Assembly (NCBI GenBank): GCA_003151825.1
Contig: PLYO01000031.1
Location: forward strand, 4,096-68,095
Direction of reading: 5' to 3'
Source of the DNA: Ignavibacteriota bacterium
GTDB taxonomy: Bacteria; Bacteroidota; Ignavibacteria; Palsa-1295
Length of the DNA: 64,000 nucleotides
Of the stretch, positions 7,381 through 55,169 are shown piece after piece. Each line of letters opens with the position of its first letter. Position 1 is the stretch's first letter. The notes beneath the pieces are model-generated. The model saw only the letters and a list, made by a program, of their open reading frames with translations, made no database searches and was not told the DNA's origin. A program made the position numbers and the translations under genes.

Positions 7381-7551
7381 GAATGACGAGTTAGTGCCAC
7401 TCCTTGACTTGAAGCATTATCACTTGCACCGAGTCATAAACACGAATGCCTTTTTGCGGATTTAGAAGTTCGATGATCGCATTGTTCCGGTGCAAGGATG
7501 GATTTATACCGTAATGCTATGAGTTATGAGATTTAGTAAGGAACAAAAAAT

Positions 7552-8202
7552 ATGATCGAGACTCCTGAGGTTAAGCCTAATAAAAAAGGAAAGCGTGTAA
7601 TCATTATATTACTCGGCTTTTTTCTCTTTCTTTGCATTATTGTGATCTTTGCATCGAATCAGAGCGAAAAGCCTACTCAACCTAATTCTACCACTTCCGC
7701 ACCACACGCGTTCGTTCCCTACTCACCACCTCCTCCCTCCTCCGAACCAAATCCTACTCCTACGCCGGTTGTTGACGAAGGAAGATGGAGTTATAATGCG
7801 AGCTATGATCAGATGCGCCAGATAACGACTGTTTTCGCAACGCTCGAAAGTAGCTCAATCCTAAATTTTGATTTCCCTTATAATGGAGGAGCAACACCAT
7901 CAATACAGTTAAGGAAGGAAGGCAATGGCAGCAGCGAAGCTATGCTGAAGATTGATAAGGGTCAGTTTATGACGAGCTATGACGGAACTCGCATTGCTGC
8001 AAAGGGAGATAATGGGCCAGTTCAATATTTTGAAGGAGATGAGTCAGCTAACGGACGGAGCGACATTCTTTTCATCGAACCTGCATCCAGATTGATTGCG
8101 CTGCTCAAAAAAAGTGCCCATGTAACTTTAGAGGCTCCCTTTTATGAAGCTGGGCGCATCCAAATGGAATTTGAGACCACGGGTCTTGTGTGGCCTCCCT
8201 AG
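7552..8202 (+). CDS. Membrane-anchored hypothetical protein (cassette 1)
   Basis: N-terminal TM helix, Pro-rich linker, globular C-domain; more AT-rich than neighbours. Confidence 0.8.
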   Translation: MIETPEVKPNKKGKRVIIILLGFFLFLCIIVIFASNQSEKPTQPNSTTSAPHAFVPYSPPPPSSEPNPTPTPVVDEGRWSYNASYDQMRQITTVFATLESSSILNFDFPYNGGATPSIQLRKEGNGSSEAMLKIDKGQFMTSYDGTRIAAKGDNGPVQYFEGDESANGRSDILFIEPASRLIALLKKSAHVTLEAPFYEAGRIQMEFETTGLVWPP

Positions 8203-8225
8203 GCGACTCAATAGTAGAATATAGT

Positions 8226-8291
8226 TCACCCCATCCCCTGCCGCTTGTGCAGATATTCCAGCCCGCTGCGGCGGGCGCGGTGAAGCGGAAC
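8226..8291 (-). repeat. Copy R1 of the DUF58 gene 3' tail
   Basis: TCACCCCATCCCCTGCCGCTTGTGCAGATATTCCAGC versus 10828ff: 3 mismatches in 37 nt. Confidence 0.9.
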
Positions 8292-8320
8292 TGTTACGGC
8301 TGCTTAATTGCTAAACCATC

Positions 8321-8539
8321 ATGAGATTATCTGTTCAATACGTAAATGACGTGCAGGGAAACGTTCAGGCGGTGCAAGTGCCCGTCGGCGAATGGAAGCG
8401 GCTTTTAAAGTCGATGCGAGGTTTGGAGCAGCGGCTGAAGCTGAAATCAGACCTGACGGAGGCGCTTGCGGAGGTCGAACGAAAACGCGCCGGCAAACAG
8501 AAAATGGAGTCGCTGGACGAATTTCTCCGTGCCTTATAG
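8321..8539 (+). CDS. Putative antitoxin
   Basis: 72 aa, overlaps the toxin start, ends LDEFLRAL. Confidence 0.75.
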   Translation: MRLSVQYVNDVQGNVQAVQVPVGEWKRLLKSMRGLEQRLKLKSDLTEALAEVERKRAGKQKMESLDEFLRAL

Positions 8540-8861
8540 CCTTAGCCCGACGGAACGGTTCAAGCACGAAGCGAAGCGGCTGATCAAAAAATATCGGTCG
8601 CTGACTTCGGAGTTACAAGAACCCTCGGAATTGCTCAAAAGCGATCCCCATCTTGGGCAAGACCTCGGTGCTGGATTATTTAAGATCCGGCTCGCCATTC
8701 AAAGCAAAGGAAAAGGAAAAAGTGGAGGAGCGCGAGTTGTGACTTATGTGATTGATAAAGACAAGGTCGTGCATCTTCTCACAATTTATGATAAAACCGA
8801 GCTTGATACGATCAGCACCCAGATTTTACGAGAGATTGCTCACGAAATTACCGAAAAATAA
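8529..8861 (+). CDS. RelE/HigB-like type II toxin
   Basis: GTG start; KKYRSL, KIRLAIQSKGKGKSGGARV, LLTIYDK. Confidence 0.85.
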   Translation: MPYSLSPTERFKHEAKRLIKKYRSLTSELQEPSELLKSDPHLGQDLGAGLFKIRLAIQSKGKGKSGGARVVTYVIDKDKVVHLLTIYDKTELDTISTQILREIAHEITEK

Positions 8862-8921
8862 TAATTGTCCAATTCCCCAAAAATAAATTAGCGTAATCCA
8901 TACAATCCGCGTAATCCAGGT

Positions 8922-8988
8922 TCACCCCATCAACTGCCGCTTGTGGAGATATTCGAGCAGCGCCGCGACGGGCGCAGTGGAAGGAAAC
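8922..8988 (-). repeat. Copy R2 of the DUF58 gene 3' tail
   Basis: 38 of 39 nt identical to 10828-10866. Confidence 0.92.
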
Positions 8989-9008
8989 TAAGATTTTGCG
9001 TAAGTGTT
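8984..9008 (+). promoter_or_regulatory. ECF-type promoter-like motif GAAAC-N16-TGTT
   Basis: Starts at the end of R2 and ends 9 nt before ATG 9018. Confidence 0.45.
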
Positions 9009-9017
9009 ATAAACGGT

Positions 9018-9230
9018 ATGAGCACAAAGACGGTATCTAAAACACGCGGCTTAAAGGAGCGCTCGCGGAAATCTCCAAATGGCCGGAGTCCGCGTACCAC
9101 TGCCTCGCTATGGGAAAAAATTGACGAATTAATCGCTCCCATCCCCGCATCGGAATGGTCGAAACTCCCTAAGGATGGTTCCGTTAACGTTGACCATTAC
9201 CTCTATGGCGCTCCGAAGCATCAGCCTTGA
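9018..9230 (+). CDS. Putative antitoxin
   Basis: Small ORF ending LPKDGSVNVDHYLYG, overlapping the PIN gene. Confidence 0.75.
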   Translation: MSTKTVSKTRGLKERSRKSPNGRSPRTTASLWEKIDELIAPIPASEWSKLPKDGSVNVDHYLYGAPKHQP

Positions 9231-9643
9231 TGCAGTATTTTGAAGATACCGGCTTTTGGATCGCTCGGCTCTCACGCAGCGACCAATGGCATACACAAGC
9301 TGTAGCTATTAGCGGAAGCTTCCAGCCATCCGACCGATTCTTTACCTCGGATTTCGTTCTGCTTGAATTGTTAAATTATTTTTCAACAGCGGGTTCATTG
9401 CTTCGCTTGAAATCTTCTACTATCGTTGAGGAGATCGAGAATGATCCTCACCACCGCATTCTTTCTACTTCATCAGAACACTTTCGCGAGGCTCGAAAAA
9501 TGTATGAGCGTCATTCCGACAAAGCATGGAGCCTAACCGACTGCTCTTCTTTCCAGCTGATGCGCGAACTCGGCATTCAGAATGCTCTCACGTTCGATCA
9601 TCACTTCGAGCAAGCCGGATTCCGAACGATACCCGGAATATAG
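9227..9643 (+). CDS. VapC-type PIN-domain toxin
   Basis: F-E-D-T N-terminus, VLLE, SLTDCSSF, LTFDHHF. Confidence 0.9.
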   Translation: MMQYFEDTGFWIARLSRSDQWHTQAVAISGSFQPSDRFFTSDFVLLELLNYFSTAGSLLRLKSSTIVEEIENDPHHRILSTSSEHFREARKMYERHSDKAWSLTDCSSFQLMRELGIQNALTFDHHFEQAGFRTIPGI

Positions 9644-9648
9644 AGAGC

Positions 9649-9669
9649 TTATCCGTCAACACTGCTTGT
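9649..9669 (-). repeat. Degenerate copy R3 of the DUF58 tail
   Basis: TTATCC-GTCAAC-ACTGCTTGT versus TTATCCCATCAACTGCCGCTTGT, 5 nt after the PIN stop. Confidence 0.4.
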
Positions 9670-10071
9670 CCTACAGAAACATACTGCGCTTCTGCCTTCA
9701 GTGATTGAATAAACATGCCACTCTCAAGCTTTATGACAGGGTACTGAGGGATTTTATAGCTATTCTATGCGATTTCTGATAGAATAAGGGATTATTTAAT
9801 AAAAAAGCAAAATTTCTATAAGAAAGCGAAACATTTATCGTTTTTATGCGTATAACCCAATTGCGAGCGTTGAGAGTGTAAACAGACCGCTGCCAGTACA
9901 GGCATGTATGATCCCTGCACAATGAAATCAAATGGCGCACTGGGGGCAATTCAAAAAGTCCTGCGCGGGTCTACCCTTAGCTTAGGAGACATTAGTTGCC
10001 GTGTTCTTTGAAAATGTATTGTGGCCTGTTGTAGTGTACTTTACGACAGGACTAAAATGATTGGAACGGAC

Positions 10072-10141
10072 TTATCCCATCAACTGCCGCTTGTGGAGAT
10101 ATTCCAGCAGTGCGCGGCGGGCGCGGTCGAAGGGCGTGAAC
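10072..10141 (-). repeat. Copy R4 of the DUF58 gene 3' tail
   Basis: Minus strand reads TPFDRA-RRA-LLEYLHKRQLMG*; all 5 differences in the first 45 nt are synonymous or stop-preserving. Confidence 0.92.
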
Positions 10142-10175
10142 CCAATCCTTGCGCTCATTCGTTAAGTCAAACAGC

Positions 10176-10532
10176 ATGAAACAAGCTTATCGCCAAACGC
10201 CTGCGCCAACGCACTCGCCGAAGAATCCGCGAGTGCAAACAGCGCGCGCGGTAAAAGCGAGACGAAAGCAAACTGTTTCGACTCCGAACGGTTCTCTTGC
10301 CGTTGATTCCACTATCCCTCGTTCGTTCGTGCCGATCTGGGAGATAAGTGAACAGGAACGCGAGAAAATTCGCAAAGACCTTGTCATTGGCCTCAAGGAG
10401 ATGAATGACCTTTATCTTGAGGAATCAAAAGCTTGGTATCCACTCGAAGAAGAAGTGTATGAAAAGTCAATTCGAAACGCTGGGCCGGGGCGACCTCATA
10501 CGAGTCGTCCTCGATCCCGTAAGAGGGCATGA
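10176..10532 (+). CDS. Putative antitoxin partner of MazF
   Basis: Upstream of and overlapping the PemK/MazF gene; acidic C-terminal part. Confidence 0.65.
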   Translation: MKQAYRQTPAPTHSPKNPRVQTARAVKARRKQTVSTPNGSLAVDSTIPRSFVPIWEISEQEREKIRKDLVIGLKEMNDLYLEESKAWYPLEEEVYEKSIRNAGPGRPHTSRPRSRKRA

Positions 10533-10824
10533 ACAATCGGGAATCCGCCCCGCTGTTGTTCTCTCGCCACTACTGATCAATGAGTTTTCCAGTACGATCT
10601 TAGTTGCCGCTTTAACCAGCAAGCGGCTCGATCGAATTTTATCTGTTGAAGTTCTGATCGAAGCGCCGGAAGGTGGTTTAAGATCGGATTCCAAAGTGCT
10701 TCTTCTTCAAATTCGATCGATCGACAAGAGTCGAATCATCGGCACATACGGCTCCTTGACTCAAGACACCATGAACCGAGTCGATCAAGCCCTCGCCATT
10801 GCGACAGGATTGCTGAAGCTATAA
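10459..10824 (+). CDS. PemK/MazF family toxin
   Basis: RGD..V.LDPVRGHEQSGIRPAVVLS, QIRSIDKSRI. Confidence 0.92.
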   Translation: MKSQFETLGRGDLIRVVLDPVRGHEQSGIRPAVVLSPLLINEFSSTILVAALTSKRLDRILSVEVLIEAPEGGLRSDSKVLLLQIRSIDKSRIIGTYGSLTQDTMNRVDQALAIATGLLKL

Positions 10825-10827
10825 CTC

Positions 10828-11733
10828 TCACCCCATCAACTGCCGCTTGTGCAGATATTCGAGCAGAGCGCGATCGAATGGCGTGGTGGTTTCGAGAAGC
10901 AGGTAATCAATCCCTTCGGCGATGAGGGAATCTTTCAAAGTTCCGAGGAATGCTTCTACCGATTTCTGATAGCTTGCCTGCATCTGGTATGGCTGGGTGC
11001 GAATTTGCTCGCCGGTTTCAATATCAACAATCGTAGCGTCGGCGGTTTCCAGTTCTAAGGTTCGTTCGGCGGGATCGAGCACTTGAAATGCAATGACTTC
11101 ATGTCCGGCATGTTGCATGAGCGAAAGCGGGAGCTTTATTTGGTCCGGCTCGTCTAAAAAATCGCTGATTACGATGACAAGTCCACGCCGCGTAAGTCGT
11201 TCGGCCACGCGGCGGAGCGCGGTTTCGGTGCGCGTGGCGTGCGATGGTTCCGTCGTTTGCAGCACACGCAGCATCTCCCGCAAATAACTTTGCTTGAGCC
11301 GCGCCGGCATGAAGGTGCGAAGCTCCTCATCGAAAATCGCGAGGCCAACAGCGTCTTGCTGTCGCATGAGCAAATATGCAAGCGCGGCGGCGAGCATTGT
11401 CGCGTACTTATATTTTGTAATGCGTTTCGGATCGCTCGTGTAATTCATCGAGCGAGAAGCATCGACGATAATATGCGCCTTGAGATTCGTTTCCTCTTCG
11501 TATTGCTTGATGTAATGCCGGTCGGTACGCGCGAAAAGTTTCCAATCTATATTGCGGATGGCATCGCCCGGCAAATAGGGACGGTGCTCCGCAAACTCGA
11601 CGGAAAAACCATGATACGGCGATTTATGCAAACCCGTAATAAATCCCTCCACCACGAATTTCGCGACCAGCTCCATCGAGCCGAGATTGGATGCGATTTC
11701 GGGTCGGAGATATTCGGTGGATTCGTCGGCCAT
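10828..11733 (-). CDS. DUF58 (vWA-like, MoxR-associated) protein
   Basis: GLHKSPYHGFSVEFAEHRPY..GD..R.IDWK, IKQYEEE, ISDFL. Confidence 0.92.
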   Translation of the reverse strand: MADESTEYLRPEIASNLGSMELVAKFVVEGFITGLHKSPYHGFSVEFAEHRPYLPGDAIRNIDWKLFARTDRHYIKQYEEETNLKAHIIVDASRSMNYTSDPKRITKYKYATMLAAALAYLLMRQQDAVGLAIFDEELRTFMPARLKQSYLREMLRVLQTTEPSHATRTETALRRVAERLTRRGLVIVISDFLDEPDQIKLPLSLMQHAGHEVIAFQVLDPAERTLELETADATIVDIETGEQIRTQPYQMQASYQKSVEAFLGTLKDSLIAEGIDYLLLETTTPFDRALLEYLHKRQLMG

Positions 11734-11742
11734 GGGGAAAGC

Positions 11743-11770
11743 GCTAAGTGCTGAGTGCTGAGTGCTGAGG
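11743..11770. repeat. Heptamer tandem repeat (GCTGAGT)x4 forming the hisC 3' end
   Basis: gctaagt gctgagt gctgagt gctgagg. Confidence 0.7.
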
Positions 11771-12865
11771 AATTCGCGTCATAATTTCTTTCATTGCACG
11801 GATTGCCCGCTCATTTTCCTCCATTGTTCCGATGGAAACGCGGACGCAGTCCGGAAGTCCGGAGCCACCCAACGGACGCACGATGATGCCACGGCGTTCC
11901 ATCTCTGCTACGAATTCGTTCGCCGCTTCAACGGACGCGAATGGAAGCAAAAAGAAATTAGCCGCCGTATCGGCAAACGGAATACCAAGTTCGCGGAACG
12001 CCTGTTTAAGATACTCCTTGCCGATCTGATTTATTTCGATGGTCTTGGCAAGAAATTCGTCATCGTCCAGCGCAGCAATTCCTGCGGCTTGCGCGGGCGA
12101 GCTTGGTTCGAATGGCAGCTTCACTTTCAGCATCGGCACGATAATTTCCTCCGGCCCCGTTCCGAAACCAATGCGAAGCCCTGCCAGTCCATGCGATTTT
12201 GAAAAGGTGCGAAGCGTAAAAACATTCGGGCGAATATCGTCCATCAATGTAAAATAATCCGGCACATCTGAAATTGCGAAATCGTAATAGGCCTCATCGC
12301 AAAGAATGATAACGTCTTTAGGAACCTGATGATAAAATGCTTCGAACACCTTGCTGCCAAAAACGCTGCCCGTTGGATTGTTCGGATTTGCGAGATAGAT
12401 GAGCTTCGTGTTTTCTGAAATACAATTGACAATTGCATTTAAATCATAAGCAAAATCGCGCATGGGAACTGTAATGAGCTTGAGGCCAATCGCATGCGCA
12501 AGCACATAGAAACCAGTAAACGTCCCATCGCTCGTCAGGACTTCATCGCCTTTTTCGAGAAACGTCCGCATGAGCGTGTTCATCACGCCCTCGCTACCAG
12601 AACCGGCGATTACCTGATTGATGGAGAGCCGATACTTTTTCGCAATCGCTTCGCGCAACGATTTTCCACCGTTCGGATAATGATGGATTCCGGCAAGCGC
12701 GTGACTCACAGCTTCCATTGCCTTCGGCGATGGGCCGAGGGGATTCTCGTTCGAGGCGAGCTTAATCACATCGGCCAGACCGTGCTCGGCCATGACCTCT
12801 TCGATCGGTTTGCCAGGTTTATAGGCCTGAAGCGCTGCAATATGCGCGGGAGGGGTAATTTTCAT
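11744..12865 (-). CDS. hisC: Histidinol-phosphate aminotransferase
   Basis: KLASNENPLGPSP, NPNNPTG, DEAY, RTFSKSHGLAGLRIG. Confidence 0.93.
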   Translation of the reverse strand: MKITPPAHIAALQAYKPGKPIEEVMAEHGLADVIKLASNENPLGPSPKAMEAVSHALAGIHHYPNGGKSLREAIAKKYRLSINQVIAGSGSEGVMNTLMRTFLEKGDEVLTSDGTFTGFYVLAHAIGLKLITVPMRDFAYDLNAIVNCISENTKLIYLANPNNPTGSVFGSKVFEAFYHQVPKDVIILCDEAYYDFAISDVPDYFTLMDDIRPNVFTLRTFSKSHGLAGLRIGFGTGPEEIIVPMLKVKLPFEPSSPAQAAGIAALDDDEFLAKTIEINQIGKEYLKQAFRELGIPFADTAANFFLLPFASVEAANEFVAEMERRGIIVRPLGGSGLPDCVRVSIGTMEENERAIRAMKEIMTRIPQHSALST

Positions 12866-42371: not shown

Positions 42372-42425
42372 TGAATGACACAAAACAAGTAAAACCCGAA
42401 AACATCTTAAAATAAATTGTATCTA

Positions 42426-42816: not shown

Positions 42817-43046
42817 CGGCGGCGGTTCGCTTCCTCTCGATCGAACTTCCACCCGCGAGTGTCGATGCTAACTGCGTTGAAATGCGCATGAACCTCCTCG
42901 ACCGTCGAAAAAACGCGATTGCCGGGGCTTGTCTCGCCATTGGCTCCAAGATCGGATAATATCACTTCAACCGTGTGCCCGCGAAGCTCTTCGGGCACTT
43001 CGAGCACGATGGTTTCTTCCGTAGGTGTAATAATTTGCGTGAACAT
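42813..43046 (-). CDS. Putative antitoxin
   Basis: Ends WKFDREEANRR; ATGA overlap with the PIN gene; AGGAGG RBS. Confidence 0.8.
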   Translation of the reverse strand: MFTQIITPTEETIVLEVPEELRGHTVEVILSDLGANGETSPGNRVFSTVEEVHAHFNAVSIDTRGWKFDREEANRRR

Positions 43047-43078
43047 AATTCCTCCTGATACCCAGAACAGGGTTGTCT

Positions 43079-43189
43079 CTACTTAGTTTCACATCGCGTG
43101 CCAAGCAAACCCTTCGGAATGCGAATATTCCGCATCCGTTCAAAAAAGAACGGTGCCCGCTTATCGTCAACTTCTACAAGTATTTTCAT
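43079..43189 (-). pseudogene. 5' remnant of the 42134-42337 antitoxin
   Basis: 43121-43203 matches 42269-42351 at 75 of 83 nt; reads MKILVEVDDKRAPFFFERMRNIR and then diverges. Confidence 0.88.
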
Positions 43190-43224
43190 GCAAAGAATAA
43201 CGCCAGTACATTAAGCAAGTTCCT

Positions 43225-43299
43225 CTCGGACTTGCGCACAAGATGTGCAACAAGCGCGCCGAGGAACGGGAAAAATATGAGGAGTGAAAGTATGCCCAT
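43225..43299 (-). pseudogene. 5' remnant of a nuoM allele (25 codons)
   Basis: MGILSLLIFFPFLGALVAHLVRKSE versus NuoM MGILSLLIFFPLLGALAALVVRKAE: 20/25 aa, 53/75 nt. Confidence 0.88.
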
Positions 43300-43323
43300 T
43301 AAAGTCTATCTTTAACTTATTCG

Positions 43324-46975: not shown

Positions 46976-47014
<39 letters not shown>

Positions 47015-47059
47015 CTTTGGCCCATTTGTCCCAAAAGTCCCATCCGGCTCACTGAAAAG

Positions 47060-47569
47060 TTAAACAAGTTTTTTCTTCGCCAAAATAATAGCCCCCACCG
47101 CTGCCGAAATAAGTATCAACGAAGCCATCTCGAATGGAAACGAATATCCGGTATAAAGCGCGCGACCAATGGATTCCGTAGTGCCAAGCACACCGGCCAT
47201 CGGACTGATGGATTTCGGCAGCTTATCCTCCGACATGAAGATCATCGCAAGAATTTGAGCGAGCACGCCGAGCACTGCCAGAATGCCGACCATTGCCTTC
47301 CAATTATTAGTGATTCGAATATCCTCGCTCTCGAGATTGAGCAGCATGATAACGAAAAGCACCAGCACCATAATTGCGCCGGCATAGACCGCAACTTGAA
47401 CAACAGCAAGGAATTGCGCCGATAAGGTCAAGTAAATTGCAGCAAGGAAGCAAAACGTGAGTACGAGCATCAGCGCGCTGACCACGGCGGATCGGCGCGT
47501 AATCGTAAGCAGCGCGAAGATAATCGCGCCCGCGCTCAAGACATAAAATGCAATTTCAGGCAGTGGCAT
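47060..47569 (-). CDS. nuoJ: NADH-quinone oxidoreductase subunit J
   Basis: QVAVYAGAIMVL, PFEMAS. Confidence 0.95.
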   Translation of the reverse strand: MPLPEIAFYVLSAGAIIFALLTITRRSAVVSALMLVLTFCFLAAIYLTLSAQFLAVVQVAVYAGAIMVLVLFVIMLLNLESEDIRITNNWKAMVGILAVLGVLAQILAMIFMSEDKLPKSISPMAGVLGTTESIGRALYTGYSFPFEMASLILISAAVGAIILAKKKLV

Positions 47570-47647
47570 TCGGAAATTTGTAGAACGAAGTCTTACAAAT
47601 TTACGAACAATTAGGACGAGATGCGAAGATTAAGGACTTTTTTCAGA

Positions 47648-47780
47648 CGTCATTGCGAGAAGTCCCGGAGGGACGACGAAGCAATCCATTGAGATTACGC
47701 TTGCTCTCACGAGATTGCTTCCCTCGTTCCTCGGGACCGCTTCTTCGCATCGCCGACGATGCACGCTCCTCGCAATGACG
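47648..47780. repeat. Multi-arm palindromic element, type B, intergenic
   Basis: CGTCATTGCGAG...CTCGCAATGACG; inner stem GAAGCAATC/GATTGCTTC. Confidence 0.88.
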
Positions 47781-47807
47781 TTCTTGAAAATCTTAATGAG
47801 GTGCTCT

Positions 47808-48428
47808 CTACCTAAAATACCCCACAAACCCGATCGAAGGTGTGGGAAGTATGTCGCCTGATGGCATGAAGGCGGTGAACATGAGGTTCAACGTCATCCC
47901 GACATTACGTCCATAAGGAATTTCATATCCTAAGCCAAATCCGAGACGGTACGGCGAATTAAGCTCATTCCCGCTCGCATTATTGGTATTCGAATTATTA
48001 CTATTCGAGCCATAACGATTCGAGTTATCTTCATTCGAGCCATCGTTGTAATAATAATACCCTCCGCCGGCGACGAGATAAAGACGAGTCACTCCTAAAA
48101 ATAGATCGTACTGAAGTTCCGCGCCGATGTCGTACATCCCGACATTGCCATCTTTGAATGGCATCCCGGTGATCTGAATTGCAATCGGGCTGTATGGGAG
48201 ATGATCTTTCAGCGTCAGCCCCACGCCGGAGACAAAGCTCGCGCCGAAACCGACGCCATAATAATTATCCGCAAAGACGTGCTGAACGCCGGCCTCGCCT
48301 GCGGTGATCGTCGTTTGACCGAACGCCGGACCGCTCGAAAGCGAGATGACGAGAATGGGAATTAATAATGCACCGAACCTGAATGACTTAACAGTATGCG
48401 ATTGTTTTTTTATGTTCATCATGGCCAT
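47808..48428 (-). CDS. Small outer-membrane beta-barrel-like protein with Asn-rich loop
   Basis: Signal peptide, alternating strand pattern, NSNNNSNTNN loop. Confidence 0.7.
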   Translation of the reverse strand: MAMMNIKKQSHTVKSFRFGALLIPILVISLSSGPAFGQTTITAGEAGVQHVFADNYYGVGFGASFVSGVGLTLKDHLPYSPIAIQITGMPFKDGNVGMYDIGAELQYDLFLGVTRLYLVAGGGYYYYNDGSNEDNSNRYGSNSNNSNTNNASGNELNSPYRLGFGLGYEIPYGRNVGMTLNLMFTAFMPSGDILPTPSIGFVGYFR

Positions 48429-49771
48429 ATTCTTGTTAGCGTCCTCGGAAATGGAATCGCTTCACGAATATGCTCCAGATCGCAGACCCACATGACTAAT
48501 CGTTCGAGTCCGAGTCCAAAACCGGCGTGCGGAACGCTTCCATATCTCCGAAGATCGAGATACCATTCAAAGACGGATTCCGGAAGGCGATGTTCCACTA
48601 ATCGGGCCTGCAACTGGGTTAAATCGTCTTCACGCTGGGAACCGCCGATAATCTCGCCAAATTCGGGGAAAAGTACGTCCATTGCAAGCGCCTTATCCGG
48701 CTCGTTCGGATCGCGCTTCATGTAAAACGCTTTTACAGCGGCGGGATAGTGGTGAACTATTACCGGCACATCGTAGAGTGAAGTAAGTGCGATTTCATCA
48801 TACGCGCCGAAATCATCGCCGTATTCGAATCGCTTGAAGGTTGGCGGTAATGGGTCGCCGGACGCAAGTTTTTCATCCCAATATGTGTCGAGAATTTTTG
48901 CGGCCTCATCGTAATGCATTCGGACGAATGGTTTTAGAATACTTCTGCATCGCGCTTCGAGCCGGCCTGAGTTTTCATCTAAAGTTCCAAGCTCGGCAAG
49001 GCGCTCTGCGAGAACTTTACCTATGACATAATGAATGAACTGTTCCGCAAGCTCCATGTCGCCTTCTAAATCCATGAACGCAACTTCCGGCTCGACCATC
49101 CAGAATTCGTTGATGTGACGCTTCGTCTTCGACCGCTCTGCGCGGAAGGTTGGGCCGAATACATAAACCTTCCCGAACGCCATCGCGCCGGCCTCGCCAT
49201 AAAGCTGACCGGATTGCGAGAGATAGGCCATCCCTTCATCGAAATATTTGGTTTCGAAAAGCGTGCTGGTTCCCTCGGCAGCATTTGGTGTGAGAATCGG
49301 TGAGTCAAAGCAAATAAAATCCCGCTCATGAAAGAATTCCCGAATCGCCCAAATGATGGTATCACGAATTTTCATCGTTGCCCACGGACGCGAATGCCGT
49401 AGCCACAGATGCCGATGCTGCATCAGATATTCGATCCCATGCTCTTTCGGCGTAATGGGATAATCGGTTGCGATTGAGATCGTTTCGAGCTTGGAAACGA
49501 ACAGCTCGACATCGCCGGGAGCCTTCCCTTTCGCTTCCTGCACTTTACCGGTCACGGCAAAAGTCGATTCCTGCGTCAGCTCATTGGCAAGAGCGTAACT
49601 GGCTTCGTCCACCGCGTTCTTCATTACGACGCACTGGCACACGCCGGTGCCGTCGCGGAGCATCAAAAATTGTATTTTCCCGCTCGATCGCTTATGCGAA
49701 AGCCACCCGCGCAGGGTTACTTCTTCGCCAACTTGCTTGCTAAGATCGCCGATATAATCCGTTTGTATCAT
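48419..49771 (-). CDS. asnS: Asparagine--tRNA ligase
   Basis: LRDGTG, YLSQSGQLY, GPTFRAE, EIIGGSQRE, PHAGFGLGLER. Confidence 0.95.
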   Translation of the reverse strand: MIQTDYIGDLSKQVGEEVTLRGWLSHKRSSGKIQFLMLRDGTGVCQCVVMKNAVDEASYALANELTQESTFAVTGKVQEAKGKAPGDVELFVSKLETISIATDYPITPKEHGIEYLMQHRHLWLRHSRPWATMKIRDTIIWAIREFFHERDFICFDSPILTPNAAEGTSTLFETKYFDEGMAYLSQSGQLYGEAGAMAFGKVYVFGPTFRAERSKTKRHINEFWMVEPEVAFMDLEGDMELAEQFIHYVIGKVLAERLAELGTLDENSGRLEARCRSILKPFVRMHYDEAAKILDTYWDEKLASGDPLPPTFKRFEYGDDFGAYDEIALTSLYDVPVIVHHYPAAVKAFYMKRDPNEPDKALAMDVLFPEFGEIIGGSQREDDLTQLQARLVEHRLPESVFEWYLDLRRYGSVPHAGFGLGLERLVMWVCDLEHIREAIPFPRTLTRIWP

Positions 49772-49888
49772 GCCCGTTAAACCCTGATTCGCGCAAAATC
49801 CGTTCAAATAAAGAATGTCTGAACCATGATTTATGAGATTTAAGGGATTTTTGAGAGAAGAATCACGTTTCGGTGCCGCTTGGCAGTA

Positions 49889-49927
49889 CGAATTTTCATA
49901 ATTCATAATTCATCATTCATCATTGCC
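49889..49927 (-). repeat. Inverted copy of the 39-bp heptamer element
   Basis: Reverse complement is GGCAATGATGAATGATGAATTATGAATTATGAAAATTCG. Confidence 0.8.
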
Positions 49928-49931
49928 ATCA

Positions 49932-50003
49932 GATCCCGTAGCTCAGTGGTAGAGCATCTGACTTTTAATCAGAGGGTCGTCGGTTCGAGCCCGCCCGGGG
50001 TCA
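49932..50003 (+). tRNA. tRNA-Lys (anticodon TTT)
   Basis: Acceptor GATCCCG/CGGGGTC, D arm GCTC/GAGC, anticodon arm TCTGA-CTTTTAA-TCAGA, GGTTCGAGCC T loop; no encoded CCA. Confidence 0.93.
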
Positions 50004-50014
50004 CAAAAATTTGT

Positions 50015-50040
50015 GGAATTCACCATGAGATTAGACCGTT
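50015..50040 (+). promoter_or_regulatory. ECF-type promoter-like motif GGAAT-N17-CGTT
   Basis: 3 nt after the duplicated tRNA end and 9 nt before ATG 50050. Confidence 0.55.
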
Positions 50041-50049
50041 CTATCGAAT

Positions 50050-50331
50050 ATGATAAGTGATAAAGAAGCCATTGAAAAAGCTGCCGATTATTTGAAATCG
50101 CTGTCATCAGAGTTGCCAGGTGGTTTGTTAGACCGTCCCGAACGTGTTAGGCTTGAATCCATCAAGCAAAATAATGGGGGATGGGAAATTGTTTTAAGCT
50201 ATTTTACCAAAGCTACCAAACGAAAGCCGGAATGGGTTAATGTGCTTGAAGGCGTTAGACGATTTAAAGAATTTACCGTTAATGCTAAGGGTCAGATCGT
50301 TGCAATGCAAGATCCGACATTAGTCGCATGA
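50050..50331 (+). CDS. Small hypothetical protein, probable PIN partner
   Basis: 93 aa, ATGA overlap with the PIN-like gene. Confidence 0.7.
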   Translation: MISDKEAIEKAADYLKSLSSELPGGLLDRPERVRLESIKQNNGGWEIVLSYFTKATKRKPEWVNVLEGVRRFKEFTVNAKGQIVAMQDPTLVA

Positions 50332-50828
50332 ATTACGATATTCGTTTTGGGGGACGCGATATTCTTCTCGATACCAATCTTTTGGTGATCCTCGTCGTTG
50401 GTTATACTCATCCGTTATTACTACAAAAAGCTCGATTTTCTGGATATACTATTCTTGATTTTGAATTGCTTCACTCGATTGTGAGTGCATGCCGTAAATG
50501 CGTTACTACCCCTCATATCATTGCTGAAGCAAGCAATATTCTTAAAAAAGCTGGAGGGCACGCAGACGATTGCCGGGAAACGCTCGGAAGAATTCTTGGG
50601 TCATGGAAAGAACGTTATTTTGCCAGCGAGTCGTTATTAATGGGGTCTGATAATAAGATTTCGCTCAGACTTGGAGTCGCCGATGGAAGTACCTTGCAGG
50701 TCGCAAAAAAAGGAACTATCATTTTAACGGCTGATGCACCACTTGCTGCGTGGCTCAAGCACAGCGGGCACACCGTTTACGAATATTCCATTCTTCGACA
50801 ACTTCAAGATAAGCTAATTAGATCATAG
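50328..50828 (+). CDS. PIN-domain protein
   Basis: ILLDTNLLV, TTPHIIAEASN, GVAD, ILTAD. Confidence 0.82.
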   Translation: MNYDIRFGGRDILLDTNLLVILVVGYTHPLLLQKARFSGYTILDFELLHSIVSACRKCVTTPHIIAEASNILKKAGGHADDCRETLGRILGSWKERYFASESLLMGSDNKISLRLGVADGSTLQVAKKGTIILTADAPLAAWLKHSGHTVYEYSILRQLQDKLIRS

Positions 50829-50835
50829 CCAAAGA

Positions 50836-50910
50836 ATGATCGTTACCGTCGATAAAAATTCGGGATTTTGCTGGGTCGTCGGTTCGAGCCCGCCCGGGGT
50901 CACAAAAATT
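50836..50910 (+). repeat. Chimeric junction: ispH first 40 nt fused to the tRNA-Lys 3' end (38 nt)
   Basis: 50836-50875 matches 54210-54249 at 39/40; 50873-50910 matches 49974-50011 at 38/38; GGG is shared. Confidence 0.95.
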
Positions 50911-50990
50911 GGCTTTTTAGAAGCTTACGGTATTATTGTGTTTTTATTTGATTTTGCTGGCGGAACCCATTTCCTTCGTATTTTTGTATC

Positions 50991-51821
50991 ATGGTGAACC
51001 AATTAACCGCGAAGTACCTAATGAAAATAATCGTCATTCTCCTGCTCATCGTTGCGACGGCATCATCCGCCTCCGCTCAATCTTCGACCCCGGAGACTAA
51101 GATTCTTGGCCCTTACGTGCTCAAGCAGCAAAAATCTACACACCTGTACTCCGGTCTTACGAATACGTTGTTTGTGTCGGTAACTAAATTCGTCGGAGAT
51201 TATCGCTTGGATTTCTTCGTCGGCGGCGAGAAAACTAATTTTTCCGAGAATGATCCGACGATTAAGGTCACACCCGTGCTCGGTAAAGATGAAGGCAAAA
51301 CAGGAATACTCAAGGTAAGCGTTAAGAAACCCGGTCAACATTCATTTGCGGTTATTCGTGAGGACACTTTCAAAATTGAACCACCTCCATTATTTGCTGT
51401 TGCTGAAGGCGACCTCGAAGAGGGTGATCCACTTCTTATTAAGGCATGGCTTGGTACTATGGACAATCCGATCGAACTTCCAAAAGGACTACAAATGGAA
51501 GCCGTTCCGGGCTTCTTCGATGGAGGTGTCGCCAATATTACCGACAAAGGAACTATGGAAAATGGGGGCGATTCCTTCTTTGGAGGGGATAAAAGGAATG
51601 ATTCCCATCACACGATTGCAACAGGTGCCGAGCCAGCAACAACTGGACATCATTTCTTCTTTGATTTTATGCCATCGCAACAGCAAACAAAAGTAGTTCA
51701 AAAGATGGGAAAGGAGCTTAACGTCACTGTGATTGATCCCCTCACCGGCCAAGCACGCACATTCCAAGTTGCAGTATACCCGAAGAGAATGGGCGTGGAA
51801 TCGGATGCGCCTGAGAAGTGA
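50991..51821 (+). CDS. Secreted hypothetical protein
   Basis: Signal peptide MKIIVILLLIVATASSASA (start may be 51021). Confidence 0.75.
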   Translation: MVNQLTAKYLMKIIVILLLIVATASSASAQSSTPETKILGPYVLKQQKSTHLYSGLTNTLFVSVTKFVGDYRLDFFVGGEKTNFSENDPTIKVTPVLGKDEGKTGILKVSVKKPGQHSFAVIREDTFKIEPPPLFAVAEGDLEEGDPLLIKAWLGTMDNPIELPKGLQMEAVPGFFDGGVANITDKGTMENGGDSFFGGDKRNDSHHTIATGAEPATTGHHFFFDFMPSQQQTKVVQKMGKELNVTVIDPLTGQARTFQVAVYPKRMGVESDAPEK

Positions 51822-51832
51822 ATTGGGGCGTA

Positions 51833-51858
51833 GGAACGGCTGAGACTTGCTGCTCGTT
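51833..51858 (+). promoter_or_regulatory. ECF-type promoter-like motif GGAAC-N17-CGTT
   Basis: 12 nt before ATG 51871. Confidence 0.55.
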
Positions 51859-51870
51859 CGTCACGATGTC

Positions 51871-52107
51871 ATGAATAAAAAGAATGTTCAAGCCTTTGCA
51901 AAATGGTTTTCGGCGAAAGGAATTCGTCCCGATTGTCCCCAATGCGGATGGACTAACGTTAACTTTGATCTTCTAACTGTAATAGCCCATGAGCCTTCAC
52001 ATGAAGAGAATACGCATCACCACCATTTGCTCGCACTTAGGTGTCCAAATTGTGCAGCAGTGCGACTCTTTGATGCTGAGACGATGGGGATAGTTGTACC
52101 GGGTTAA
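51871..52107 (+). CDS. Small zinc-ribbon protein
   Basis: CPQCG and CPNCA pairs. Confidence 0.7.
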   Translation: MNKKNVQAFAKWFSAKGIRPDCPQCGWTNVNFDLLTVIAHEPSHEENTHHHHLLALRCPNCAAVRLFDAETMGIVVPG

Positions 52108-52124
52108 GATTGAGCTCTTCAATC

Positions 52125-52472
52125 TTACGACATACGTACGGGAGGCCTGCGAGCAAGCCCAATTTTCAAGGCTCTAAAAAATCGCGTATAGCCACAGGCG
52201 GCACAACTAACGGCAATAAAATCGCTGTCAGGAAATTGCATTTCTCCTCGCGCATAATCAATTGCGGGAATAGAAAACCTCGCTGATTCCGTACCCGCTT
52301 CTTTGCCACACTGCGAACAAACTCGCGGTACGGTTGAAAGGAACTTCCCTAAGATTTCATGCTCTTTTTGAGTAAGAATGAAATCGGGCTGCGCCTCATT
52401 CTCTCCGTAGGGTTCTCGTGTGCCAAAATTATTCATAATCATCAAACGAAATAGAGAGTTCTTAGCCCTCAT
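52125..52472 (-). CDS. Small zinc-ribbon protein
   Basis: CSQCG and CAACGYTRFF; start uncertain. Confidence 0.65.
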   Translation of the reverse strand: MRAKNSLFRLMIMNNFGTREPYGENEAQPDFILTQKEHEILGKFLSTVPRVCSQCGKEAGTESARFSIPAIDYARGEMQFPDSDFIAVSCAACGYTRFFRALKIGLARRPPVRMS

Positions 52473-52571
52473 TTCAAAAATAATCCGATAACAGTTTCCA
52501 ACTCCGAAATTGAAAAATTTGGTTCAGAGTCAATGCGAAGGATGAGTTCCCATCGGCCCTGAACCAATTGG

Positions 52572-52805
52572 TTAGTGTTTCCCATAAGTTTCCGTCTGCT
52601 CGTGGCAGGGGATACAAAGAGCCTCACAATTAGAAAGCCCATCATGCCCCAAAGAAGCTTGAGCAGTCTTATGATGAGCGTGCCAGTTTGTTCCATACAA
52701 CTGAGTGTTGCAGCGCCCAGAATGTACGTGTCCCAAACGTGTGCATTCGCAACGATTGCCAGCCCTCTGTAGAGCTTGCATTCTTACACTTTCACTAAAA
52801 GCCAT
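52572..52805 (-). CDS. Small HNH endonuclease-like protein
   Basis: RCEC...RC...HAHH...G.DGLSNCEALCIPCH. Confidence 0.8.
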   Translation of the reverse strand: MAFSESVRMQALQRAGNRCECTRLGHVHSGRCNTQLYGTNWHAHHKTAQASLGHDGLSNCEALCIPCHEQTETYGKH

Positions 52806-52957
52806 GTTTTTATGGTTTACCCATTCACTCTCGGTGTAGATCGGTGTTTCCGATTCACCCCAATATGCCGCGGGTCACAGCACACAGTGCAATATAAAAC
52901 ACTGGATTGTGACATAAGTTCATGCTTCCTGCCATTTTGGCATGAAAAATTCCACCC

Positions 52958-53326
52958 TCATTTCGGCTCCCATAACTCGATGGGATTGCCCTCCGGATCG
53001 TTCAAACGAGCGAACCGTCCGTAGGGAGTCATCTCCGGATCGAACGTGACTTCGATCTTGGAAGCGCGAAGCTGATCTACCAGCGTGCCGAGATCGCGGA
53101 CACGAAAATTGATCATCCACTGCTTTTCGGCATTCCCAAAATACTTGGTATCCTCCGGGAACGGTGAGAAGACGGTTGTCCCTGCCTCCTGCGTCCACGG
53201 CTCCTGGCCTTCCCCTGTCGGAACAGGATCGATACCGAGATGTTCCTTATACCACTGAGCGAGTGCGGGTGCATCCTTCGCACGGAAGAACAGCCCACCA
53301 ATTCCAGTAACATGTTTATTTGCCAT
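52958..53326 (-). CDS. VOC/glyoxalase family protein
   Basis: VTGIGGLFFRAKD, MINFRV, DPEGNPIELWEP. Confidence 0.9.
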   Translation of the reverse strand: MANKHVTGIGGLFFRAKDAPALAQWYKEHLGIDPVPTGEGQEPWTQEAGTTVFSPFPEDTKYFGNAEKQWMINFRVRDLGTLVDQLRASKIEVTFDPEMTPYGRFARLNDPEGNPIELWEPK

Positions 53327-53428
53327 ATTTTGGAAACCAGTTTGTCAAAATAAAAAGTTGCTTTATTTCGGTAATGGTGTCATAATTGGCGTGGATGCCG
53401 CAATTTCGCATGTCGTTGGCCCCTAACC

Positions 53429-53548
53429 ATTTCACATCTCTTAAAGGCTGAGGATGCTGTTGAACTTGATCCTACGAAATTGACGATTGATGGGCACGTT
53501 GAGCGAGTGTACGAGTTGGCAAAAGCCATGCTGGAATTATTGAAATAG
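53429..53548 (+). pseudogene. Probable 3' remnant of cytidylate kinase (cmk)
   Basis: ISHLLKAEDAVELDPTKLTIDGHVERVYELAKAMLELLK* resembles the Cmk C-terminus (SPL.KA.DA...DTT..TI...V). Confidence 0.6.
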
Positions 53549-53566
53549 CATAATGCTTATTAGACT

Positions 53567-54157
53567 ATGAGCAAAACTGCGGTCGCACTGTTTTTTCTGA
53601 CTATTGCAGTTCCGACAATGAGTCAGACTGTCTCGCGAACACCGGTCGCTTCAAAGGATAGCGCGATAATAGCCACTGAAGATTCGCTTGCAATAGTTGA
53701 AATGTTTGCTCGGCGGCATCCAGAATCACCGTTTCTCAAAAGAGATATTGCAATCGGTGGGTCGCTTGGAACTCCTGGCATTGTGAATTTTATTGCTGAA
53801 GGATATTATGACCGCGTGGGTCTGCGCATTGAAGGAGGAGCTATGTTAGTATTACTTGCATTTGGCGCTGGATGGCAAGCCGATGTTAGCTATGTGCTGT
53901 TGAGAGGCTCCGATTACCTTCTGGAATGCTCGGCAATATATTTCAAAAGCATTTTTACAAGCTTCGATGCCGGCGAGACAACATGGTACAACGGAATAGG
54001 CGTAGGCATGGGAGTAACTTCAGGACCTATTTTTCTCCAATTGGGAATCGGGCATACTCGTTCGGGAGACCAGTACACCGCGGAGAATCCCAATAAGATA
54101 CTTATCAATGGATTGCCAATGAGTGGGCAAGTTGGCCTTATACTTCCATTGCATTAG
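53567..54157 (+). CDS. Secreted/outer-membrane hypothetical protein
   Basis: Signal peptide and Gly-rich beta strands. Confidence 0.7.
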   Translation: MSKTAVALFFLTIAVPTMSQTVSRTPVASKDSAIIATEDSLAIVEMFARRHPESPFLKRDIAIGGSLGTPGIVNFIAEGYYDRVGLRIEGGAMLVLLAFGAGWQADVSYVLLRGSDYLLECSAIYFKSIFTSFDAGETTWYNGIGVGMGVTSGPIFLQLGIGHTRSGDQYTAENPNKILINGLPMSGQVGLILPLH

Positions 54158-54209
54158 CTGACAGGTGACACCTTAACGATTTTACAGCTGTGCTTGTTTA
54201 GATTTATTA

Positions 54210-55169
54210 ATGATCGTAACCGTCGATAAAAATTCGGGATTTTGCTGGGGCGTGGTTCGCGCGGTGAACTTCGCCGAGGCGGAGCTTGCCGGACAGTCCG
54301 GCAACGGGCGCGCGCCTCGGCTGTATTCACTTGGCGATATTATCCATAATCCGGTGGAAGTGGATCGTTTGCGTTCGGAGGGCCTCGAAACGATCACGCA
54401 CTCCGATTTCGAGCGCATTGCTGAAGAGAACCGCGCGCTTGGTATCGAATCCAAAATTCTCATTCGCGCGCATGGCGAACCGCCGTCAACCTTTGCAAAG
54501 ATGCGAGAACTTGGGCTTGGTATGGTGGATGCTACCTGTCCCGTCGTGGCCAAAGTGCAGGAGCGCATTTATAAATTCTACGAAAAAGGTTACCAGATCG
54601 TTATCTTCGGGAAAAAAGATCATGCGGAAGTGATCGGACTTCGCGGCGTAGTCAATGACGAAGCCATCGTCATTAAATCTGTCGAAGAAGCATTGGCGAA
54701 AATTAAATTCGACCGGCCAACCGTCGTGTTCTCGCAAACGACGATGGATCGCCCCACTTTCCGCGAAATCCGCGACCGATTGAAAGAACGCATCGCCGAT
54801 CTCGTTGTCGATACGATGGAAGAAACCGCCATCGAATTTCAAGCGAAAGATACCATCTGCGGACAAGTATCGGGGCGCGAAACGAAGCTCGTCGAGCTTG
54901 TGCGAACGCAGGATGTAATCGTCTTCGTCGCCGGACGGAACAGCTCGAACGGCGTTGTGCTCTTCAACATCGCGCGCGAAGCCAACCCGCGCACGCATTT
55001 CATCGAAGACGAGCGGGAACTGGATATGGCGTGGTTCGATAATGCAGAAACGGTTGCCATCACCGGTGCAACGAGCACCCCGCAATGGCTGATGCAGCGC
55101 GTCGCCGATGCGATCTACAAAATGTGCGGCGAACCGGAGAAAGCGGAATTGCTACCTATCCTCGTGTAA
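54210..55169 (+). CDS. ispH: 4-hydroxy-3-methylbut-2-enyl diphosphate reductase
   Basis: GFCWGVVRA, IIHN, RAHG, DATCP, DTIC, SSN, TGATSTP. Confidence 0.96.
   Translation: MIVTVDKNSGFCWGVVRAVNFAEAELAGQSGNGRAPRLYSLGDIIHNPVEVDRLRSEGLETITHSDFERIAEENRALGIESKILIRAHGEPPSTFAKMRELGLGMVDATCPVVAKVQERIYKFYEKGYQIVIFGKKDHAEVIGLRGVVNDEAIVIKSVEEALAKIKFDRPTVVFSQTTMDRPTFREIRDRLKERIADLVVDTMEETAIEFQAKDTICGQVSGRETKLVELVRTQDVIVFVAGRNSSNGVVLFNIAREANPRTHFIEDERELDMAWFDNAETVAITGATSTPQWLMQRVADAIYKMCGEPEKAELLPILV

Follow-up and report, generated by a model that had tools for sequence, protein, structure and literature searches.

Introduction

How small modules such as toxin-antitoxin genes enter chromosomes without transposases or integrases is poorly documented. 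One described route is insertion with long target duplication, which Nobusato et al. reportedly recognized in 2000 for restriction-modification gene complexes. According to a later report, restriction-modification genes lie between direct repeats of more than 30 bp and of variable length, without transposase or integrase; the repeats often cover a translation start or stop, so that the neighbouring gene stays intact, empty sites are found in related genomes, and the species are mostly naturally competent (Furuta, Abe & Kobayashi 2010, PMC2853133). Here we analyse a stretch of 64,000 nucleotides (the window, C12:4096-68095) from G000, a metagenome-assembled genome (MAG) of an Ignavibacteriota soil bacterium, in which small cassettes stand beside intact core genes and are bounded by short copies of those genes' own ends. 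These copies are probably scars of homology-anchored recombination rather than sites of a dedicated integrase, a reading to which we give a probability of roughly 0.6. Coordinates without a contig prefix are window positions; G0xx designates relatives' genomes and Lxxx metagenome contigs.

The loci resemble insertion with long target duplication in that small addictive modules lie between variable direct repeats, here of 32-103 nt, without a mobility gene, and in that empty sites hold a single copy (nuoL-nuoM in seven of 14 congeners, the C47 locus in G006, cmk-ispH in G008). They differ from it in their cargo, toxin-antitoxin instead of restriction-modification genes, and in their number, with up to three fragments stacked per gene and 23-30 genes concerned in a single 3.6-Mb genome. 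The decisive difference is that the copies look like diverged alleles and not like duplicates of the gene's own target: 117 of 174 mismatches fall at third codon positions, and five of the eight fragments compared match relatives as well or better. In the literature that we searched, most subscription journals lying outside it, nothing was found that describes toxin-antitoxin cassettes delimited by copies of gene ends.

Rhs (rearrangement hot spot) and contact-dependent inhibition (CDI) toxins also have C-terminal displacement arrays. For type VI secretion system (T6SS) effector-immunity genes, one study describes incoming DNA that pairs through the conserved upstream part, brings a new end with cargo and displaces the former end or immunity gene to a downstream position, with growth on the proximal side; homology-facilitated illegitimate recombination was proposed as the first step, and homologous recombination as the means of later spread (Kirchberger et al. 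2017, PMC5361080). The order of parts is the same at two of our loci, DUF58 and C47: an anchor, a new end with cargo, and older ends downstream in order of age. However, our anchors are housekeeping genes (nuoM, ispH, accC-like, engA-like, tRNA-Lys), not polymorphic toxin genes. Moreover the new end does the same job as the one it replaces, and the payload is an unrelated toxin-antitoxin pair, whereas in the toxin arrays the variable end itself is the selected payload. The original prediction, a first reading of the window from its letters, had proposed a general process that brings in a replacement end plus cargo without naming either of these published analogues; its idea of an end swap is partly supported by what follows.

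Integrases offer a further comparison. In phage 21 and e14 (in icd), tRNA-targeting islands and tycheposons, an integrase inserts at gene 3' ends or tRNA genes and supplies the replacement end. As in those elements, our loci show a duplicated target end, a working replacement end that differs synonymously, and tandem arrays at tRNA genes, but there is no integrase in or beside the cassettes, the targets are many and unrelated, and the breakpoints are not fixed. Integron cassettes are often toxin-antitoxin pairs. They share with ours a size of approximately 0.5-1 kb, proximal addition and a short recombination sequence between cassettes; here, however, no intI is adjacent, and the inter-cassette sequence is the end of the neighbouring gene, different at every locus.

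Fragments of gene ends across the genome

G000 comprises 3.59 Mb in 51 contigs, with a completeness of 98.4% and a CheckM contamination of 6.57%. Open reading frames (ORFs) of at least 100 amino acids (aa) were called (2,790 ORFs, covering 88% of the genome), and the gene termini from these ORFs were compared with the whole G000 genome. The scan at the nucleotide level, which is not biased toward conserved protein sequence, returned 51 fragments of 3' ends. Among these, 36 (at 30 genes) lay downstream of the gene on the same strand, 11 upstream on the same strand and only 4 on the opposite strand. A scan with C-terminal peptides, paralogues removed, gave 32 intergenic matches: 26 on the same strand past the 3' end (22 genes), five on that strand but on the wrong side, and one on the opposite strand. 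Repeated on intergenic DNA alone, it gave 25, 5 and 2, in the same order.

Nine fragments at seven genes, judged from repeat families and mismatch pattern to be probable repeats or spurious ORFs, were dropped from the nucleotide set. The curated set holds 27 fragments at 23 genes: one fragment at 20 genes, two at two genes, and three at a DUF58 gene in the window. Fragment length has a median of 60 nt (range 32-103, interquartile range 42-68), identity to the resident end a median of 90% (73-100%), and spacing a median of 708 nt. Mismatches at codon positions 1, 2 and 3 number 36, 21 and 117 (of 174, p = 7e-20); before curation the figures were 57, 58 and 151 (of 266, p = 4e-15). Such a bias agrees with the proposal that the fragments come from functional alleles, and this genome-wide scan of termini, one of the checks suggested with the original prediction, turned out in its favour.

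The equivalent nucleotide scan of 5' ends was noisy (54 same-strand upstream versus 96 same-strand downstream), partly because ORF starts were those of the longest ORF and partly because of intruding upstream repeats. By inspection, approximately eight to ten start-codon-anchored 5' fragments were judged genuine; they are rarer than 3' fragments, and we make no statistical claim for them.

Six anchors outside the window were scanned with Pfam and correspond to a biotin carboxylase, an EngA-type GTPase, an AAA_2 ATPase, an exonuclease III-like protein, a radical-SAM protein and a DUF455 protein. By far the greater part of the cargo consists of type II toxin-antitoxin pairs of approximately 0.7 kb. 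Units between gene-end copies in the window measure 0.6-1.1 kb and consist mostly of two small overlapping ORFs of toxin-antitoxin type, and outside the window 16 of 30 cargo ORFs match toxin-antitoxin-type Pfam families (PIN four times, PemK twice, HepT with nucleotidyltransferase, BrnT with CopG, YoeB, DUF4258 with DUF2283, DUF3368 with UPF0175, and HTH_3). Larger cargo outside this class includes a BNR protein with a type IX secretion system (T9SS) tail and an AAA_21 ATPase.

Two loci gave no usable comparison. The one on C49 is uninterpretable, its anchor belonging to a multi-copy family of T9SS-tail paralogues; at the C4 locus the flank past the fragment is conserved in no congener, hence no empty site can be defined.

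Some fragments match the resident ends of other lineages

For five of the eight fragments compared, a relative's resident end matches the fragment as well as or better than the gene's own end does, or matches it over more bases. The C38 fragment matches the resident end of G006 at 51 of 54 positions and its own at 49 of 56, for a gene otherwise approximately 79% identical between these species. Transfer direction was sought at this locus and abandoned, as no recombination breakpoint is callable with the whole gene 69-79% identical between species. At C47:53145-53927, the outer fragment (fb) together with 190 nt downstream of it can be aligned over 252 nt, at 80%, to the resident end and flank of G006, where the site is empty.

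Because some fragments match another lineage's resident end better than their own, they are best read as displaced alleles and not as in-situ duplications. The outermost fragment keeps the ancestral downstream flank, which fits the proposal that the displaced end is left behind as a scar. Since fragments match the resident ends of others and keep those ends' flanks, the arrays can be read as a record of one gene end after another being replaced, the newest unit lying beside the gene. The corresponding pattern, older ends lying downstream of an anchor with its new end and cargo, was seen at the DUF58 gene (against G014, G003, L185 and L179) and at C47.

The DUF58 array

Three fragments are stacked at window 6169-11733. 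The anchor is an intact DUF58/VWA gene (10828-11733, minus strand; Pfam DUF58, E 5e-53), found in 40 of the 41 genomes searched. The conserved far flank is a convergent class-V aminotransferase gene (6169-7380, plus strand; Pfam Aminotran_5, E 9.8e-56). Fragments f1 to f3, detected as a repeat family, hold the last 14-22 codons of DUF58 and the stop; DUF58 fragments vary in length from 42 to 66 nt. All three lie on the minus strand: f1 (8226-8281) is the outermost copy and ends in ...RARRSGLEYLHKRQGMG*, f2 (8922-8977) is followed by the ancestral downstream motif GGATTACGCGGATT, and f3 (10072-10140) is a mosaic. These copies, like the other gene-end copies listed in the original prediction (nuoM 5' end, ispH/tRNA-Lys hybrid and cmk tail, see below), are all present where that prediction placed them.

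The cassettes of the array are read on the plus strand. The outermost, c1 (7381-8225), holds a 216-aa ORF (7552-8202) with an N-terminal hydrophobic segment and without Pfam family. In c2 (8282-8921), a RelB-like ORF (8321-8539, E 1.3e-3, below cut-off) precedes a RelE-like one (8466-8861; Pfam RelE, E 4.7e-6). A VapB-like ORF within 8943-9230 and a PIN toxin (9227-9643; Pfam PIN, E 1.1e-11) make up c3 (8978-10071) together with a noncoding repeat copy on the minus strand (9650-10068, approximately 400 nt, one of 15 copies in G000). Finally, c4 (10141-10827) pairs an antitoxin-like ORF (10149-10532) with a MazF/PemK toxin (10405-10824; Pfam PemK_toxin, E 1.2e-26); it is the gene-proximal and newest unit of the array.

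As a comparison with relatives had been expected to show, cassette content at these loci varies and empty sites exist. The aminotransferase flank lies within 12 kb of DUF58 in nine of 15 relatives' loci, with a spacer of 674 nt to 2.8 kb versus 3.45 kb in the window, and these spacers contain different cassettes and zero to two fragments. Orthologues of f1 occur in G006 (49 of 51 identical) and G009, and c4 with f3 is common to G003 (78.7% over approximately 860 nt). In G014 the resident DUF58 end is directly followed by the same repeat and c3; in the window, f3 is followed by the same repeat and the VapBC cassette. The block f2-c2-f1 is 82.6% identical to a block made of resident end, c2 and fragment in metagenome contig L185. 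The motif GGATTACGCGGATT, which stands at the end of c2 next to f2, also trails the resident DUF58 stop in L179, L034, L035, L038 and L043.

The mosaic structure of f3 is informative about the exchange. Its outer 46 nt match the resident end of L179 at 46 of 46 positions, as expected of a fragment that was once a functional allele, and that of L255 at 44 of 45, but its own resident end at 38 of 41. Its inner approximately 20 nt carry a 9-nt insertion (reading RARR) known only from fragments, namely f1, f3 and those in L181, L185, G006 and G009, and absent from all 19 resident DUF58 ends compared. Perfect identity to the resident allele starts just outside this insertion. We infer that a fragment's inner part moves along with the cassette and that its outer part derives from the displaced resident end. 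Because the inner part is shared among fragments while the outer part equals a resident allele, such mosaics fit either a double crossover or a circle that enters by a single crossover.

Reads across the junctions had also been proposed as a check. Logan contigs from four peat-metagenome runs of three studies, one run being possibly the source of the MAG itself, were placed on 7300-11900. With zero mismatches, they bridge c1|f1|c2 in all four runs, c2|f2|c3 in one and c4|DUF58 in three; repeat|f3|c4 is bridged in a single run, where one side is covered by no more than 28 nt. Within 7300-11900, raised depth and loose ends occur only at the 15-copy repeat inside c3. The junctions are thereby supported for this array, which is the scope of the check.

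The nuoM locus

At 40055-44694, on the minus strand, an intact nuoM (40055-41785; Pfam Proton_antipo_M, E 8e-80) anchors cassettes bounded by copies of a 5' end. The displaced nuoM 5' end (43226-43300) holds the start codon and 24 codons, with 72% nucleotide identity to the resident end and approximately 20 of 25 residues by reading both translations; its mismatches number 6, 2 and 13 by codon position. Between gene and fragment lie a RelE-like toxin (41805-42131; Pfam RelE, E 4.5e-5, below cut-off) with its antitoxin (start 42337), together 41805-42388, and a PIN-like (42484-42852; Pfam PIN, E 5.9e-3, below cut-off) and VapB-like (42813-43046) pair, together 42484-43046. Beyond them, 43121-43210 is a copy of the 5' end of the antitoxin gene and its upstream region (90 nt, 88% identical to 42269-42358), also present in G014. 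This copy is the displaced end of a cargo gene: the VapB/PIN pair interrupts an older copy of the RelE-type cassette at nuoM. Homologues of the pair are found at C50:144381-144962 in G000 and at other loci in relatives.

In seven of 14 congeners nuoL and nuoM are adjacent, overlapping or up to approximately 45 nt apart, which is the empty site. The gap is 1.7-2.6 kb in G011, G012 and G014, and wider still in G005, where the same RelE-type cassette stands behind a longer nuoM 5' fragment.

The nuo operon is also split by the gene of a 456-aa BNR-repeat protein (43324-44694, minus strand), which lies between nuoL and the nuoM fragment and has a match at this locus in none of 14 congeners. Its C-terminal tail is T9SS-like, judging from a paralogue's Pfam matches and from inspection of the C-terminus.

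The tRNA-Lys and ispH locus

At 46976-55169 a single scar combines two anchors. The left anchor is tRNA-Lys (UUU) (49932-50004, plus strand; ARAGORN; Rfam tRNA, 67.4 bits) and the right one an intact ispH (54210-55169, plus strand; Pfam LYTB, E 1.3e-80). Cassette cA (50012-50834, plus strand) follows the tRNA and has overlapping ORFs of 93 aa (50050-50331) and 166 aa (50328-50828) in a toxin-antitoxin-like layout, without Pfam family. Then comes the hybrid scar (50835-50910, plus strand), in which 38 nt from the start of ispH run directly into 38 nt from the end of the tRNA-Lys region. The remaining cargo block, cB (50911-54208), contains a secreted 276-aa ORF, zinc-ribbon ORFs, a weak HNH ORF, a 122-aa ORF (52958-53326, minus strand) read by eye as glyoxalase-like without a profile scan, a cmk tail and a 196-aa ORF.

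The last 31 nt of tRNA-Lys and 7 nt beyond are repeated at 100% at 50873-50910, where they abut a 96% copy of the ispH start (50835-50879). The joint lies inside GGG[T/G]CGT[C/-]GGTTCG (50866-50882), 15 of whose 17 bases are common to both parents and which is located in the T-arm of tRNA-Lys and in codons 12-17 of ispH. The ispH part is identical to the resident ispH of G009 and G014 (37 of 37) and differs from its own by one position (36 of 37). The hybrid has all the appearance of a microhomology joint, an exact fit to the proposed combination of a homology anchor with a microhomology second joint. The order tRNA-Lys, cA, ispH 5'|tRNA 3' hybrid, cB, ispH could come from one event, in which a donor carrying tRNA-Lys, cA and ispH pairs on the aminoacyl-tRNA synthetase/tRNA side and its ispH end joins the T-arm of the recipient tRNA via microhomology. 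With the tRNA copy at 38 of 38 and the ispH piece off by one in 37 from the resident, this event would be recent.

The orphan cmk 3' tail (53426-53548, plus strand) holds 40 codons and the stop. Over 35 residues it shows 68.6% identity to the resident cmk, which in G000 lies on another contig (C30:14589-15257). The claim that the resident gene stays intact beside its fragment therefore holds for DUF58, nuoM, ispH and tRNA-Lys, but not for cmk, which has no adjacent intact gene in G000. In four of eight relatives' loci (G003, G004, G008, G010) cmk is the upstream neighbour of ispH, with a gap of 38 nt in G008, the empty site. The tail is thus probably a relic of an ancestral cmk-ispH neighbourhood.

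The 5' fragments of ispH break at codon 13 in G000, at codon ~26 in G014 (78 nt, decayed) and at codon ~30 in G004 (88 nt, directly after cmk, the ancestral position). Of cB, only the region of the 122-aa gene is common to G014. The original prediction had spoken of a candidate system; with breakpoints differing in this way among three species, nothing shows a dedicated one.

Two side observations concern the same neighbourhood. Two 39-nt arms of AATGATG-type heptamer repeats (46976-47014 and 49889-49927), 95% complementary and 2.9 kb apart, bracket the segment with the gene for a class-II aminoacyl-tRNA synthetase, just upstream of tRNA-Lys. In G006 (C1:88000-90534), the start region of the aminoacyl-tRNA synthetase upstream of tRNA-Lys is doubled (query 393-473, 78% identity) with a PIN gene (88519-88890) in between, apparently another 5'-end scar in a separate assembly.

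A proposed rare origin and repeated spread

These end products can be accounted for by a rare illegitimate origin followed by repeated legitimate spread. At the origin, DNA of a related lineage, with a diverged core-gene end and an adjacent cassette, would pair with the recipient through the homologous gene, and its non-homologous far end would be joined illegitimately, at microhomology, a few dozen bases inside the recipient's gene end. Such homology-facilitated illegitimate recombination would leave the gene intact with the incoming end and push the native end outward as a fragment of ~30-100 nt. From then on, a cassette between two gene-end copies should be movable by ordinary homologous recombination, as the mosaic fragments suggest: either by a double crossover, with the left exchange in the gene and the right one linking the donor's fragment with the resident end of the recipient, or as a looped-out circle entering by a single crossover. 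Each event would turn the resident end into the next fragment, and arrays would grow gene-proximally.

Three filters may shape what is seen. Toxin-antitoxin cargo would be kept because its loss is costly; repeats of ~60 nt would persist, shorter ones being unable to recombine and longer ones looping out fast; and selection would leave only the events that keep the core gene whole.

Several points weigh against this account. It is drawn from end products. The microhomology joint is visible at one junction only (50866-50882). Because species of the genus differ by ~20-25% in nucleotide sequence, the donors must be much closer, unsampled strains; the best metagenome match is 86%. Homologous recombination over ~60 nt with several mismatches should be inefficient, MutS and MutL being present. 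The ratio of nonsynonymous to synonymous differences (pN/pS) of 0.22 comes from protein-detected fragments and is biased by detection through protein similarity, with one misframed row, and is given less weight for these reasons.

The distribution of scars is the other difficulty. Every 400-kb chunk of G000 holds one to six fragments, and the nucleotide scan gave no true fragment in 400-kb samples of a complete chromosome of the genus (G001), of a second congener (G009) and of a genome from another family (G033), only a 20-22-nt tandem repeat in G009. Scarring is not unique to G000, congeners being scarred at the loci examined, but its frequency there is. Recombination being universal, this richness stays unexplained by a purely generic mechanism, which is thereby weakened. 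The toxin-antitoxin load of G000 is only moderately higher (27 PIN versus 0-22 in 14 congeners; eight MazF versus 0-15). Loss of mismatch repair was considered as a cause of the enrichment and rejected, MutS, MutS2 and MutL all being present in G000. Ku was not found in G000.

G000 offers approximately 27 clean end products; stacked arrays are among them, one microhomology joint can be read, and relatives have empty sites. This suggests that the end of a core gene, copied over a short length, can act as a portable homology arm, which, if true, would be a recombinase-free counterpart of the integron attachment site. The idea of long target duplication would then reach toxin-antitoxin genes, and "duplication" could be allele displacement. 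Scars would provide a simple sequence signature for gene flow among close lineages of uncultured bacteria, and their unexplained enrichment in G000 makes the factor that controls their rate a testable question.

Recombinases and rival explanations

A recombinase or other dedicated machinery, whose genes would lie in another part of the genome or on a plasmid or phage missing from the bin, might act in trans to insert small circular cassettes, with the gene-end mimic as attachment site, like attC/attI. The cassettes are compact and uniform (median spacing 708 nt), and fragment lengths fairly tight around their median of 60 nt. A tRNA 3'-end repeat starting in the T-arm is a classic integrase signature, and the derived 9-nt insertion is shared by DUF58 fragments as if it moved with the cassettes. 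Moreover G000 is far richer in scars than the two congeners sampled, as an extra factor would predict, and one integrase-bearing island exists (C27:155-175 kb).

We nevertheless consider this explanation unlikely. Inspection of 27 junctions by eye, distal and proximal, showed no common motif among at least 23 anchor genes. Copies of one toxin-antitoxin cassette at different loci have no terminal repeats, homology stopping at the coding region. Breakpoints vary between events at one gene, and a single recombinase with a fixed core is disfavoured because breakpoints, cassettes and empty sites differ at the same gene among relatives.

A search for seven families genome-wide (PF00589, PF00239, PF00665, PF01609, PF01548, PF00078, PF07282) gave no match on the contig of the window or in any cassette, which bears out the remark that no integrase or transposase is recognisable there. 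No rve, DDE_Tnp_1, IS110, RVT_1 or TnpB was found in G000 at all, with the proviso that a MAG can miss plasmids, phages and repeats. A search for orphan recombinases, reverse transcriptases and competence genes, which had been suggested, was only partly informative. G000 has only three tyrosine recombinases (PF00589; C42:33209, C33:86259 and C27:173184) and one serine recombinase (PF00239; C27:166475), none beside a cassette. Two high-scoring PF00589 matches are presumably Xer-like. ComEC and DprA are present, but the same searches match 10-11 of 14 control genomes, hence they tell nothing.

A variant with a lineage-specific factor, which we hold to be quite improbable, supposes that the Kapaibacterium lineage has an integron-like cassette economy minus the integron. 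Toxin-antitoxin cassettes would carry a mimic of the last or first ~20 codons of a housekeeping gene, and the factor, an enzyme or a property of the cassette, would insert and excise them. If true, it would explain the narrow ~60-nt size and why 23-30 genes are scarred in G000 versus none in the 400-kb congener samples.

Insertion with long target duplication in its strict form would make each repeat a duplicate of the gene's own target, the copies diverging later or the gene copy being replaced by recombination with other alleles. Its published anatomy fits: direct repeats of more than 30 bp, often over a start or stop codon, without mobility gene (PMC2853133). Several of our pairs are also identical or nearly so (C4, 45 of 45; tRNA-Lys, 38 of 38; C21:964, 90 of 95). 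Most pairs, however, differ mainly at third codon positions, unlike a decaying non-coding copy, some fragments are closer to other lineages' resident alleles than to their own gene, and fragments bring the downstream flank of another lineage. Own-target duplication is therefore also rather doubtful as the general explanation, and recombination scars formed through homology remain our preferred reading.

That mixed-strain variant paths were joined in tandem in a short-read MAG is very improbable: the 51 contigs and 6.57% contamination of G000 and its outlying scar density against long-read congeners would fit such an artefact, but zero-mismatch per-run contigs bridge junctions in runs from three studies at the DUF58 array, the only one checked in this way, and comparable fragments occur in other assemblies (G009, G006 and G014, which we take to be long-read) and in metagenome contigs L181, L184, L185 and L255.

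Other observations

The island at C27:155000-175000 has a low GC content (0.44-0.50 versus ~0.52) and contains the one tyrosine integrase of G000 not presumed Xer-like (173067-174173), its sole serine recombinase (166160-166933), and excisionase-like and DUF262-like ORFs, read from their N-termini by inspection. It resembles an ordinary integrative defence island; nothing turned up that links it to the cassettes, and no test was aimed at such a link.

A regulatory role of f1 to f3 was considered and rejected, a scan of 7300-11000 for sigma-70 promoters and intrinsic terminators having put nothing on the fragments; this is a weak test, as promoters of this phylum differ from the sigma-70 consensus. 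Rfam matched only tRNA-Lys over the window, and nothing in 9500-10200.

The 15-copy noncoding repeat measures approximately 370 nt, starts with TTAGTCCTGTCGTAGAGTACACTACAACAGG and matches no Rfam family. Other copies, some with an extra hairpin insert, include C21:1-198, C12:70887-end, C39:16791-end and C45:78671-end, often at contig ends or beside N runs. Its depth in public runs is 3-10 times that of its flanks, and in two cases it begins 12-15 nt past the stop codon of a fragment. It may be an element of the miniature inverted-repeat transposable element (MITE) kind or an unknown structured RNA.

A tandem array of approximately ten paralogous genes of ~590 aa at C5:7050-25154, with termini 60-98% identical, dominated the raw scan and is unrelated to the scars.

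At C30:37187-37663 and C4:4078-5241, the resident end and each fragment each have their own terminator-like hairpin, and the hairpin stems at C30 differ by compensatory changes. At these loci the displaced unit can apparently include the terminator.

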